Part shown: positions 255 to 54,740 of the stretch, one piece after another | Layout of the letters: each line of letters begins with the position of its first letter | Position numbering within the stretch: the stretch's first letter is position 1 | Program-made: the position numbers and the translations under genes | Source: Eledone cirrhosa | Taxonomy: Eukaryota | NCBI GenBank assembly: GCA_964016885.1 | Contig: OZ024743.1 | Location: 90,768,001 to 90,832,000, forward strand | Length of the DNA stretch: 64,000 nt | Reading direction: 5' to 3' | The notes under the pieces: generated by a model | Told to the model about the DNA's origin: nothing | The model's database searches: none | Seen by the model: the letters and a program-made list of their open reading frames with translations, nothing else

Positions 255-428
255 ATGTCTGTTGGAAGCTCCCGAATAGTGGGGTTACTAATTTTATTAT
301 TGGTCTATTATGCAAATTAGTGTCGGAGAGGTTTAAATCCCATACATTTAAATTAGCCGACACTAATTTGCATAATAGACCAATAATAAAATTAGTAACC
401 CCACTATCCGGGAGCTTCCAACAGACAT
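255..428. repeat. Foldback inverted repeat, 72-bp arms (255-326 / 357-428), next to (TA)n
   Basis: atgtctgttggaagctccc...attagtgtcgg is reverse-complemented at 357-428 with about one mismatch. Confidence 0.9.
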
Positions 429-484
429 GGTCGCATTCTTTTAAGGGTATGTCAATATTTATTTTATAAAACTGATCTATATTA

Positions 485-549
485 TATTTTATCTGATGAA
501 AGCGCACCATAATTTGCTTTGGTGTCCTTGAAATATGTATAATGAAATA
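485..549 (+). ncRNA. Minimal type I hammerhead ribozyme
   Basis: Stem I tattttat/atgaaata, core CTGATGA, stem II aagcgcacc/ggtgtcctt, GAAA, stem III tatgta, cleavage triplet ATA. Confidence 0.7.
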
Positions 550-702
550 AATATGGTTTTATAAATATAGTTTCCATTTATAAATATATTGTATTTTTAT
601 TCCAAAAATTTGTTGAGTGCTTTATATCAGTTATAAAAATATTTGCTTGTTGTATCCCAACAAATTAAATATAACTTCTACATATATATATATATATATA
701 TA

Positions 703-1130
703 TAGTGAAAGAGTGAAGAATAACAGGTCGGCTGTACAAAAAGGGTTTATTTACAGTACTAACAGTTGTTTCATTGATCAGGTGAGTTTAAAGGCCCCTA
801 ATCACTAGAAATAGCGTCACTCGACCTTAATTACACACTGTAATTAAGGTCGAGTGACGCAATTTCCACTGATTAGGAGCCTTTAGACTCACCTGATAAA
901 TGAAACAATTGTCAATACTGTAAATAGAACCCTTTTTGTACAGCCGACTATGTTATTCTTCACTCTTTCACTATTATTACTCCAAGAACCACCTGCATGG
1001 AAACTCGTAAACTAGCTACCTAACTAAGGAAACTTCTTGTAGAGTCAATCAACACCGAACATTAAAACTATCCATAGTACAGAGTAGTGACAACCTCTCA
1101 CTGGATTACCTTAAACGACACCTTGTTATC
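703..1130 (+). mobile_element. PLE-type foldback (arms 703-835 / 839-973) with ~155-bp tail
   Basis: Imperfect ~133-bp inverted arms with a perfect inner stem. It contains the HHR 3' half GAAACAATTGTC. Arm and tail are homologous to the PLE remnant at 19953-21211. Confidence 0.8.
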
Positions 1131-1236
1131 CCCCTCTCTCTCTATCTCTGTCTGTCTGTATATATATATATATATATATATATATATATATATATATATA
1201 TATATATATATATATATATATATATATATATATATA

Positions 1237-2750
1237 TTACAACTATGGAATTTACAACTGCAATGCTGCGACGTCACCTTAAAAATAAACGCAACCATGC
1301 CTCTCCTGGTCTTGATGGTGTTACGTACCTGCTTCTCAAACGTGGTGGGTACTTCCTTCTGCACCAGCTATCACGCTTCTTCCAATTCTGTCTGAACAAC
1401 GGTGCTACTCCAGAACAGTGGAAATTCCTCTGTTCAAAAAGGGTGACCGCACATCACCTGTGAACTATTGTCCAGTCAGTCTTACTAGCTGCATTGCCAA
1501 ACTGATGGAATCCTGTGTCAGAGAAACACTTTGGAACTTCTGGAACTCTCACAGTCTTACCCGGCCCACGCAATTTGGATTTATCCCTAACTCCAGCTGT
1601 TGTGATCAACTTATCGAGTTTCTTGAACACATCACCCTGATCACTGATAGCGGCTCATGGGTGGATGTTGTTTACCTTGATTTTGCTAAAGCTTTCAATT
1701 CTGTGCCACACAAAAGGCTTATGGCAAAACTCTCGGCAATGGGTGTGAAGGATGATCTTTTTAACTGGTTGAAGTCCTTCATTCTCTGTCGAAGAGAGGT
1801 AGTCACAGTTCTAGGACAGCATTCCTCACTATATGAGATGTCATCTGGTGTACCGCAGGGATCTGTTCTTGGCCCCCTTTTGCTTGTGGCTTATATTAAT
1901 GACATAGATGCCAACTTAAAGAATGCCACAGTACTAAAATATGCAGATGACAACAAGCTGTACCTTGAGATAAAAAGGACAGATCCTGAACACTATAGAT
2001 CTTGCTTGCAGTCTGACCTGGACACAATACAACAATGGATCACAGACAGGCAACTCAAGTTGGCTGTGGACAAGTGCACCACCATGCATTTTGGGAGTAA
2101 AAACTCAGCGTCCACATACTCCCTCCACAACACTAATATCAAGAAGTCTTCTTGTGAACGTGACCTGGGCATTACGGTCAGCAGCGATTTGCGTTGGACG
2201 AAGCACGTCTCTAAAATTGTCAAGAAAGCCGAGGGTGTCTTAGCATCACTCAGCAAGACCTTTGTCAGCCGCTCTCCAGCTATCTATTTAAAGCTGTACA
2301 TAGATATGGTGCGGCCACACTTAGAATTTGCATCACCAGTCTGGAACCCCTATCTTGCTCAGAACATTGACCGCCTGGAAACTGTTCAGAGACGTGTAAC
2401 CAAGCGAATACCCTCCATCAGGCATCTACCATACTCTGAACGCCTTGCTTCCCTGGGCATGGATACATTGAAGCTCCGACGTCTGGCAACTGACTTGGTA
2501 AACACTCACAAAATTATTAACCATCTTACCAACAACAACCCTGAGTACCATTTTGATTTCCATGTGTCTAACACACGTGGACATGCCAACAAAGTCAGAA
2601 AACAGCACAGTTCCCATGACTTTCGGAAACATTTTTTCACGCTCAGAGTTGCTGAAGCATAGAACAAACTACCTGCATCAGTTGTTAGCTGTCGAAACAC
2701 TGCATCCTTTAAAACCTCCATGCTTCGGGAGATTCGCCAACACTACACTT
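1237..2750 (+). mobile_element. 5'-truncated CR1-group non-LTR retrotransposon, RT region (ORF 1418-2662)
   Basis: Motifs NYCPVSLTS, YLDFAKAFNSVPH, GVPQGSVLGPLL, YADD, ERDLGI, VRPHLEF, TRGH. There is a frameshift at the 5' end and a premature stop at 2662. Confidence 0.92.
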
Positions 2751-52172: not shown

Positions 52173-52772
52173 ATAACGTTAAGATAGGGGATGGGATAGA
52201 TTTCAAAGTGTTCGTAGAGAGATTTCGGATGGTCTGCCAGTTTGCGTGCATCAGGTGAGAGGGGAGAGGGTCTCCTCATGGGTGTTCTTATTCCCTGGAT
52301 AGCCGCTGGATAAATTCTATAAAGTGTTGTCCGTGGTCAGGTGAAGTTGTTATCCTGAATGTTCCGCTAGTCTATAGGGATAGGTTGGGTCCTCTGGTCA
52401 GCTCTGGTAATCAAAAAGAAGAGGATTTTAAAGTCCAGTCCGTTGCTATGAGCCGTGTCATTCGGGCAGAGCATATGAAGCCATCACCTGTTTATCAGCA
52501 AATCGCTCAACTTAATCGGAGCATTTAATTAAAGTATGGGGTTAACCAAACAGAGATGTGCGGACCACATTATGGTCTGTCGGTTGTGAAGTAGATAAAA
52601 AGAAGCGCTGAACGACCTGTATAAATGGTGCAAGTCAGAGCATTATATATTAATAAAAGATCGTTCGGCCGGCTCTCTGTATCATGAAAATAAAATCTTT
52701 TTCAGGGAAATTATTGGATTTTTCCAAATTTAAAGGTTTCTTAGGAACGTTCAATGTTTATTTTAGGTTTTA

Positions 52773-52830
52773 TCGTCTGAAGAGCTCAGGATATCATAAC
52801 TGATAGTTATCAGTGAAATATGTATAACGG
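52773..52830 (+). ncRNA. Type I hammerhead candidate
   Basis: tcgt CTGAAGA gct...agt GAAA tatgta ta acgg. The upstream flank has an inverted relative at 46909-47050. Confidence 0.6.
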
Positions 52831-52859
52831 AGTTTTAAATAAACCTGAATCAACTGAAT

Positions 52860-53900
52860 ATGTTAAAAAAATTCACGTTTAAAGATGACCAAACTTTCAC
52901 AGTGAAAAACAACTTCACTTGCAACTCAGAGAACCTGATCTACGTAATCACATGCGGTGGCTGTCAACATAACTACATAGGACAGGCAGGTGTGTCATTA
53001 CGCAAAAGAATGACCATCCATCGCCAACAAATCCGAGACGGAAACACAAGAAAAATCCCCTTAAGTAGCCAACAACAAAGAATAAATAAATAAAAAACTA
53101 TTTCTTAATAAATTTAAACCTAAATTAAATATGTAATCACCCCCATTAGATTCTCTCTCTCTCCCACTCACACACGCACACACACACACACACACACACA
53201 CACACACACACACACACACACACACACACACACACACACACACACACACACACAATTTACACACACCACGAAATAAGAGAAAAAATTGCTCATACACATA
53301 TTTTCCAAACATTCCTGATTGAAAGCCACCACTGACGCTTTGCTCTTTTAAAAAAATTTCTCACCACAAAGGGACCTGTGACAGACAGGCTGAAGCACAC
53401 ACGCCCCCCCCTACACACACATGTGTGTATTTTTACATATACACTCTGATACGTACACACACTCTCTAAAACCATATTCCAAAAATAGAATTTCTTTTAT
53501 AACCCTACTGTTGCCAATCACAGAATTTGTCTCTAGCTTACAATTCCCCACTTCGCCACCTCCATCTGAACTGTTGACCAGTCCATTAATACAATTGAGA
53601 TACACACACATATTTACAGAATATTTCCTTTGTCCCTAAAAATGTTGTTCAATGTGAAAAAACACACCTACAAACACTGTTGCTGCTACTATCATGACTA
53701 CACACCTCTCTCTCTATTCACGAGAGTTTATTTTCCAGTCTCCTTCTCAACAAGGAAGATGAAAAAACTTACCTCAACACTTAATTTTCAATCATATAAT
53801 TTTTAGTTTTTAATTCTTATTAATTCTTTTTAATTGTAATACTCAACATTTGATAAGATGAATTTTATTAATACATCGAAACCAGTAATACTTTATATAC
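52860..53900 (+). mobile_element. PLE GIY-YIG fragment with degenerate HHR at about 53845-53890
   Basis: FTCNSENLIYVITCGGCQHNYIGQAGVSLRKRMTIHRQQI, and ttgataa gatgaatt..aatacatc GAAA ccag ta. Confidence 0.7.
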
Positions 53901-54076
53901 TTTATATACATTATAAAACTCTTTTTTAAAAGAATCGTCGCTCTCATTTTTTCAATAATGTCACTTTAACGAATCAAAGAAAGGAAAAAAAAAAAAACCG
54001 TCTCTTAAATATATTTTCTGTGCTATTTCCAGCTTTACCATTTCTCTATAACCACTGTTTTATATATATATATATA

Positions 54077-54740
54077 TAAATATAAGTATGTATACGTACA
54101 TACATATATGTATACAGACGTACAGTAGTATGTATATATATACATACATGCACGCATATATATATGTACGCATGGATTTACCGAGCATTTATTATAATGC
54201 TCGGTTTGTTTGTAAACAAACATCCCGAATTAAGCCGTACAGTGTTTAGCAACCATCGTTGCCCTTTTGTTCAACACTGACAAAGGAACGATGTACTAGT
54301 TCAAGCTTATTAGCTATCGTCAGCACCGTATACCTTCCTGCCAGATGATTGAGCGTCTGAAAGTATATACTTTCCTTATGCATATTAACGGCTGAGCAGC
54401 CTAATTTGCATATCGAGTGAGTTAATCGGCCGGGCGCACCGAAAACTAGTACATCGTTCCTTTGTCAATGTTGAACAAAAGGGCAACGCTGGTTGCTAAA
54501 CACTGTACGGCTTAATTCGGGATGTTTGTTTACAAACACACCGAGCATTATAATAAATGTTCGGTAAATCCATACGTACATGTATATATGTGTGCATGTA
54601 TGTATATATATACATACTACTGTACGTCTGTATACATATATGTATGCACGTATACATACTTATATTTAAGTAACAGCCGTACTAAGAGTGAGAAATGAAA
54701 CTTCGTTTCATTTTTTCCGTTTATATATATACTTAAATAT
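54077..54740 (+). mobile_element. Foldback (arms 54077-54301 / 54444-54668) with ~70-bp tail
   Basis: 225-bp arms with few mismatches, flanked by TA. Confidence 0.88.

Follow-up and report, generated by a model that had tools for sequence, protein, structure and literature searches.

Head-to-head hairpin insertions in (TA)n tracts of the Eledone cirrhosa genome and their probable origin by paired priming in Penelope-like elements

Introduction

The stretch of the Eledone cirrhosa genome (3.0 Gb) at positions 90768001-90832000 of contig OZ024743.1, 64,000 nt long and here called the window, is dotted with hairpin-forming inserts in (TA)n tracts, raising the question of which elements leave such inserts and by what route. 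A first-pass annotation had taken them for products of Penelope-like elements (PLEs) and not for miniature inverted-repeat transposable elements (MITEs) of the DNA type. That attribution is supported by the variety of their junctions (106 distinct junctions in 115 insertions) and by their links to PLE coding sequence. The reading we favour, with a probability of roughly three in four, is that they are head-to-head (TA)n insertions with one tailed arm, for which a PLE reverse transcriptase (RT)-endonuclease primes two cDNAs on RNA of a single source, each at its own fixed start site.

Inserts, families and sampling

Self-BLAST of the window with microsatellites masked recovered local inverted repeats at all 14 coordinates where hairpins had been annotated. 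The arms of these inserts are ~50-540 nt long and 80-100% complementary. The inserts are flanked on both sides by (TA)n, directly or at most ~25 nt away, with (TG)n or (CT)n interposed on one side of inserts 19953 and 703. Where 9-10 families had been claimed, we count 13, lettered by the coordinate of their insert: A (255), B (703), C (4553), D (16344), E (16895), F (17347), G (18815), H (19173 and 21230), I (19390), B2 (19953), K (23616), L (25841) and M (54077). The pairs 703/19953 and 16895/23616 are 72-77% alike in DNA, and 4553/18815 ~70% alike in protein. Sampling covered 20-60 loci in each of the ten families other than B2, K and L; DNA searches gave the best-scoring copies, and pattern searches the first copies on one contig (C1) together with whole-genome counts.

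Two 3' end sites and a single tail

The ends of the arms follow a simple rule. In all eight families tested (B, C, D, E, H, F, I and M; in M, end mapping also gave spurious matches to its TA-rich part), the 3' ends that adjoin the microsatellite fall on two fixed sites, 25-160 nt apart, so that an arm either has a tail or lacks it. Among 136 distinct head-to-head insertions (286 loci), a count limited to insertions without a run of 11 or more TA units and with their ends on the two sites, 134 pair a tailed with a tail-less arm, two carry two tails and none is without a tail. By class, a single tail is present in 94/95 PLE-derived and 40/41 retrozyme insertions. The asymmetry of the arms noticed at first pass is thereby borne out. 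As a rule for most of the window's inserts it holds in general, with insert 255 atypical: its short arm ends ~250 nt from the end, while arms of other family A copies mostly stop ~80 nt from it.

TAT or ATA stands at the second end site in 10/13 families, against a background of 0.31. The tails show no clear excess of structure over shuffles (z -2.0 to +0.1). The second end site follows the predicted ribozyme cut at a distance of 52-60 nt in families A, B, B2, E and K and of 18 nt in H; the tails of the first five open with a common TTACTCC-like motif.

Kinship of the arms and their junctions

Arms that share an insertion also tend to share a source. Their divergence is 0.031 within and 0.049 between insertions (125 insertions, Wilcoxon p 7e-14), and in family H the same subfamily tag occurs on both arms in 25 of the 30 scored insertions, against 7.6 expected. 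A single source for both arms is thus the usual case.

The junctions between arms are varied. The 126 that could be parsed comprise 64 with an overlap of at least 1 nt (32 with at least 4 nt), 13 blunt joints, 38 with 1-20 extra bases and 11 with more, the overlap counts being raw figures, without a computed null, that near-palindromes inflate. Fixed internal length and symmetric ends were looked for as marks of DNA-type elements; instead, the 115 insertions with at most 20 extra bases hold 106 distinct arm-length pairs. The tail-less arm extends further 5' than its partner in 40/115 and less far in another 40/115, so each arm stops independently.

Distinct arm-length pairs and arms uneven in either direction therefore fit neither a fixed MITE nor simple fold-back copying well. 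MITEs or foldback DNA transposons targeting TA repeats would share with these inserts the short inverted repeats, the TA flanks and the high copy number, but the asymmetric ends, the variable junctions and the RT and GIY-YIG coding sequence of longer copies largely refute such an origin, which we regard as highly improbable.

Fold-back copying deserves more attention, though we still judge it unlikely. Here a single PLE-made cDNA would fold back and be copied as far as the second site, later deletions at the tip leaving the arms uneven. The frequent placing of junctions on short palindromes (overlap of at least 4 nt in 32/126), the variants common to both arms and the interpretation of junction palindromes as self-priming in PMC3846280 all speak for it. 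However, the tail-less arm holds sequence absent from the tailed arm in 40/115 insertions, each of which needs a second event, and the fixed stop at the second site needs a cause of its own, whereas two start sites have been shown in vitro (PMC11167929).

The first-pass annotation had also spoken of a miniature element system. We rejected the idea that the hairpins spread as ready-made units because their junctions vary from copy to copy; apparently every hairpin arises anew when it inserts. A few ready-made cases may still exist, as some junctions in families E and C recur at natural palindromes. Both arms favour a family-specific 5' stop, at ~55-65 nt in H, 165 in B, 200 in C, 227 in E and 250 in D, positions that the choice of query may bias in all of these except H. 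The preferred stop of family B is the first base of the hammerhead stem. Such stops could mark RNA 5' ends or barriers to the RT.

A hairpin in a long-read assembly may also be an artefact, and one insert (25841) has 539-nt arms that are 100% identical, while in the comparison made for window 16896-17574 no independent contig or read spans a locus-specific tip. Against this, arms differ by ~3% on average and follow the family-specific end rule. Raw reads from another study under the same species label contain strand-change joints at the family E palindrome (9 reads, 5 starts), and in contigs of other runs tail-less E and F ends run into (TA)n (window 16896-17574 in both cases). This independent material supports the structure of the families, not the exact loci of the window, and we give an artefact almost no credence.

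Families derived from Penelope-like elements

The expectation that families would extend into PLE open reading frames (ORFs) in longer copies held in 9/13 families, accounting for 10 inserts; an eleventh, of family K, is added by likeness only, being 73% like E in DNA and not itself traced to an ORF. The clearest case is the 512-aa frame of family L, with Pfam matches to RVT_1 (E 4e-16) and GIY-YIG (E 7e-5). A longer copy of family C (L153) has a single 638-aa RT and endonuclease frame by motif and tblastn, and the long copies of this family have a tail-less inverted arm upstream in 4/4 cases. In D, E, H, B and G, copies that are frameshifted or partial continue into sequence for the RT, the endonuclease or both, and A and B2 reach the endonuclease C-terminus only (A, of Hydra type, in the longer copy L293). 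Two inserts of the window had been said to enclose PLE coding sequence, and they do: 25841 (RT and GIY-YIG) and 19953 (endonuclease C-terminus).

What was found agrees with endonuclease-bearing (EN+) PLEs: RT followed by GIY-YIG in one frame, 5' truncation with an adjacent inverted copy, and a one-sided 3' tail. Longer copies (B in L323 and L325, E in L151, H in L158) were read for linker and C-terminal motifs. E, H and B have a CxCx5C linker, and E, B, A and B2 have C-terminal CxxC and CxH-type motifs, of which H shows CxxC only. By the linker in E, H and B, and by the C-terminal motifs in E, B, A and B2, these families are provisionally assigned to the Hydra clade; a 'Neptune' label for E, H and B was dropped after this comparison. 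C, D, G and L show neither the linker nor the C-terminal motifs of that clade (PMC8557442); C, D and G have a Cx4CxxC linker, and L has neither linker. Judged from sequence, truncated 3' ends of PLEs make up 11 inserts, of which one is placed here by likeness alone, and the remaining three are retrozymes, so both halves of the earlier description 'truncated or non-autonomous' apply, each to its own class. Stop-free PLE frames of 1096, 938 and 844 aa occur in other PLE families of the genome (L417, L418 and L419) and are candidates for recently active elements.

Hammerhead cores

A strict hammerhead descriptor matched seven times in the window, whereas 20 block-wise dinucleotide shuffles gave 0.05 matches on average. 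With a relaxed descriptor (the shuffle control applies to the strict one) a complete core was found in 6/14 inserts (255, 16344, 16895, 19953, 23616 and 25841), and point-mutated cores were recognised by eye in 19390 and 54077. The insert at 704..1133 is cut off within the hammerhead of family B, and the first H copy (19174..19351) has only its 3' half; in the families of 703, 17347 and 19173/21230 the hammerhead lies upstream of where the window copies end. Rfam recognised none of them: there was no hammerhead among 113 window matches, none at gathering score in 10 loci and none at E <=5 in two stretches, one of them a mutated-core copy.

Some predicted cores are variants. A U3:A8 pair is a known natural hammerhead variant, and family H has TTGANAA, with such a pair, in 6/8 long arms (loci L035, L089, L155, L158 and L313). 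Family B has CCGATGA in 24/29, and family L CCGAAGA. Further hammerhead-like cores lie outside the listed inserts, at 52777 (+) and 21586 (-) by the strict scan and at 33905 (-) and 3434 (-) by eye.

Retrozyme families

Families F, I and M are of another kind. They consist of ORF-less, low-GC monomers arranged head to tail (F 541 nt, I ~310-315 nt, M ~430 nt), and the longest stop-free stretch in their dimers is 59-70 aa. Each monomer has a type I hammerhead; among copies that match the family-specific pattern, core, GAAAC and GUH are intact in 30/32 (F), at least 17/31 (I) and at least 42/53 (M). Two of the three fold well beyond shuffles (z -7.1 and -6.7), with F at z -2.6. These properties are those of non-LTR retrozymes (LTR, long terminal repeat), to which the three families are assigned by sequence criteria. 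Diverged relatives of I (74-79%) at L193, L295, L073, L247 and L132, several of them tandem with a hammerhead of their own, make up a ~310-nt retrozyme family.

The 138 monomer starts follow their own tail in 109 cases, their own inverted sequence in 22, a microsatellite in 2 and other DNA in 5; the 252 tail ends meet a microsatellite in 138 cases, the next monomer in 111 and other DNA in 3. Because retrozyme arms cross the ribozyme site and the monomer junction, the template would have been multimeric or circular. Few arm 5' ends fall at the predicted ribozyme cut in I (1/40) and M (2/76), where they form no cluster; in F 10/87 fall there, against 3.8 under a uniform null that ignores short-arm bias.

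It is conceivable, though we hold it to be quite improbable, that F, I and M are instead terminal repeats of unsampled coding PLEs, made tandem by partial-tandem insertion or unequal crossing-over. PLEs do form partial tandems (PMC8557442), Xenopus retrozymes resemble pseudo-LTRs (pLTRs; 10.64898/2026.07.22.740005) and the sample is of ~30-60 loci per family. Yet the family's own tail precedes 109/138 monomer starts, no in-line PLE coding match was seen at these starts, and the tandems lie within dispersed two-armed insertions. Since these insertions show the same one-tail footprint, it is likely that a PLE enzyme copies PLE ends and retrozymes alike.

Proposed mechanism

For paired priming by a PLE enzyme, we envisage that a (TA)n tract is first cut on both strands by the GIY-YIG endonuclease, as was seen in vitro for another PLE (PMC11167929). 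One cut end would prime at the end of the tail and the other at a point 25-160 nt further upstream, in many cases with the aid of a short TA match. Both cDNAs would stop early, often at family-specific places, and be joined head to head, probably at short palindromes, bluntly or with a few bases added. The RNAs of F, I and M, as multimers or circles, may enter this PLE reaction in trans, with copying that continues past the ribozyme site and the monomer junction they contain.

Several observations weigh against this account. Most queries held the tail, so that pairs without a tail are under-sampled except in family I and half of M; with the tail-free queries (family I and one of M), 25/26 insertions were single-tailed. 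The nearest arm is the partner arm in only 66/125 insertions, the same-source signal is weak in family B and absent from family I (0.056 within, 0.048 between), and conversion between arms after insertion could mimic it. The predicted hammerheads escape recognition by Rfam. No PLE with the 3' end of F, I or M appeared among the matches listed for 10 other family references, nor in 50 GIY-YIG loci, a sample of CCHH-type endonucleases that does not visibly cover Hydra; a relaxed BLAST for such a partner gave only a 47-49-nt, 78% match to F near family G ends, at two loci. Finally, PMC11167929 looked for and found neither homology between cut DNA and start site nor a strand preference of the start sites, in contrast to the TA matches and strict pairing seen here.

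More speculatively, self-cleaving retrozyme RNA circles may be rolling-circle templates for a dimeric PLE RT with one fixed start site per subunit, and PLEs may have seeded the genome with hairpins that give double-stranded RNA (dsRNA) when read through; we hold this to be less likely than not. If it were true, every two-armed insertion would be the fossil of one twin-initiation event, the genome would hold tens of thousands of short perfect hairpins, and dsRNA from their read-through would feed editing or small-RNA pathways.

Relation to known systems

Insertions with two primers are familiar from twin priming in L1, where a single cut supplies both primers and the resulting inversion is closed at a microhomology; there the second primer pairs further upstream, and the segment it copies is another one. 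The inserts described here would likewise be two-primer products, but their two arms are copies of one segment, with a fixed second site, and so form a hairpin.

Much of the pattern is known from PLEs, for which inverted 5'-truncated copies, a tail of typically 30-40 bp and (TA)n targets have been described, with the mechanism called open (PMC8557442). Our families agree with the C-terminal EN+ PLEs of the Hydra clade in that paper in the inverted 5'-truncated copy, the one-sided tail, the (TA)n target and the hammerhead near the 3' end. They differ in tails of 78-160 nt against the typical 30-40 bp, in the reduction of most sampled copies to hairpin and tail, and in a near-absolute one-tail rule, which the accessible part of PMC8557442 leaves unquantified. 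Inverted copies, tails and (TA)n targeting are thus known PLE traits, found here in an extreme and very abundant form.

The Poseidon element PAc comes closest to the proposed mechanism. In vitro both strands are cut and extended, and two RT start sites bound the tail (PMC11167929). An uncleaved RNA template, an AT-rich target and two start sites are common to both systems, and our two arms match those two start sites. In the available text of that study the start sites are not tied to the arms of inverted insertions and show no difference between strands, whereas here each arm takes one site in 134/136. The Penelope elements of Adineta vaga also have an inverted pLTR, an optional tail and palindromic inverted junctions, and pLTR-flanked sequence is trans-mobilised there (PMC3846280). 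They have a low copy number, self-priming on an antisense template is proposed for them, and they show target-site duplications, which the (TA)n targets make unreadable in our case.

Mobilisation of metazoan retrozymes by PLEs has been proposed from co-occurrence, shared ribozymes and pLTR homology, not from the footprints of insertions, with the mechanism left open (PMC7229834; 10.64898/2026.07.22.740005), and retrozymes 'may rely on' PLEs (PMC8969392). Like F, I and M, the metazoan non-LTR retrozymes of the first two reports are ORF-less, low-GC, head-to-tail monomers with one type I hammerhead; the evidence differs in that F, I and M insertions bear the PLE footprint, and no homology to PLE ends was found among the family references and GIY-YIG loci compared. 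The word 'inverted' is absent from the accessible text of PMC7229834, as are both 'hammerhead' and 'retrozyme' from that of PMC13282606. We found no published report of the footprint on retrozymes or of the one-of-each pairing, in a search that left most subscription journals, Repbase and supplements outside. Two results go beyond the print we found: the two ends pair one of each almost without exception, and ORF-less retrozymes bear this footprint too.

Copy number and significance

The families can be very numerous. An exact 23-mer of the family H tail occurs 27,168 times genome-wide and its tail-less end adjoining (TA)n 20,606 times; 21 of 30 position-ordered H loci were short hairpins by script. 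A 22-mer of the family M tail occurs 13,728 times and a 25-mer of the family F tail 463 times, and the reversed-pattern controls gave 0 in every case. Such inserts look like MITEs or microRNA precursors, so large-scale mis-annotation is possible; Rfam gave sub-threshold microRNA matches to the window.

The one-tail rule turns the two start sites known in vitro into a testable model of twin initiation. The footprint on retrozymes limits the candidates for the mobilising enzyme to PLEs, shows which start sites should be tested and supplies genomic evidence for a route only proposed in PMC7229834 and 10.64898/2026.07.22.740005, as far as their available text goes.

Features of the window

The inserts are collected in Table 1.

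Table 1. Inserts of the window, with window coordinates and strand.
Family	Position	Strand	Features
A	255..680	+	PLE 3' end; short inverted arm; complete hammerhead core at 493
B	704..1133	+	PLE 3' end, Hydra motifs; hairpin 704-972 and 160-nt tail
C	4553..5051	-	PLE 3' end, Cx4CxxC linker type; 33-40-nt tail at left
D	16345..16850	-	PLE 3' end; 56-nt tail at left; atypical hammerhead core at 16662, in tail-less arm
E	16895..17333	+	PLE 3' end, Hydra motifs; minimal hammerhead core in both arms; 90-nt tail
F	17348..17574	+	Truncated two-armed insertion of 541-nt retrozyme monomer; ~82-nt tail; ribozyme not reached
G	18763..19130	-	PLE 3' end; element-internal (TA) run between arm and 32-nt tail
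H, copy 1	19174..19351	-	PLE 3' end, Hydra motifs; near-perfect palindrome and 79-nt tail
I	19390..19890	-	Two-armed, ~310-315-nt retrozyme monomer; 25-nt tail; hammerhead mutated in both arms
B2	19953..21211	-	PLE 3' end; endonuclease C-terminus in spacer; hammerhead core at 20256; ~150-nt tail
H, copy 2	21231..21422	-	
K	23616..24071	-	73% like family E; hammerhead core at 23822; 106-nt tail
L	25844..28418	+	5'-truncated PLE; 539-nt arms, 100% identical; 44-nt tail; variant hammerhead core in both arms
L, frame	26307..27845	+	512 aa, stop-free, RT then GIY-YIG; first ~25 residues from inverted arm
M	54077..54720	+	Two-armed, ~430-nt retrozyme monomer; 50-nt tail; mutated hammerhead in inverted arm

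Beyond these, families H, D and C have further copies, single-armed or in the form of small hairpins, at 5195-5255, 3712-3919, 12094-12187, 28555-28866, 57166-57409 and 5386-5619. An additional hammerhead-bearing inverted family occupies 57994-58560 (core at 58496, minus strand) and was found in 20/286 sampled loci. PLE coding fragments also occur outside the listed inserts, at 22358-23260 and 55496-56920. RT-like fragments of the long interspersed nuclear element type are seen at 1316-2662, 7279-8538, 13303-14797, 30056-31452 and 59232-62858, two of them confirmed as RVT_1 and the rest taken from the list of ORFs. A 9-kb satellite at 37908-46869 consists of 345 copies of a 26-nt purine-rich unit.

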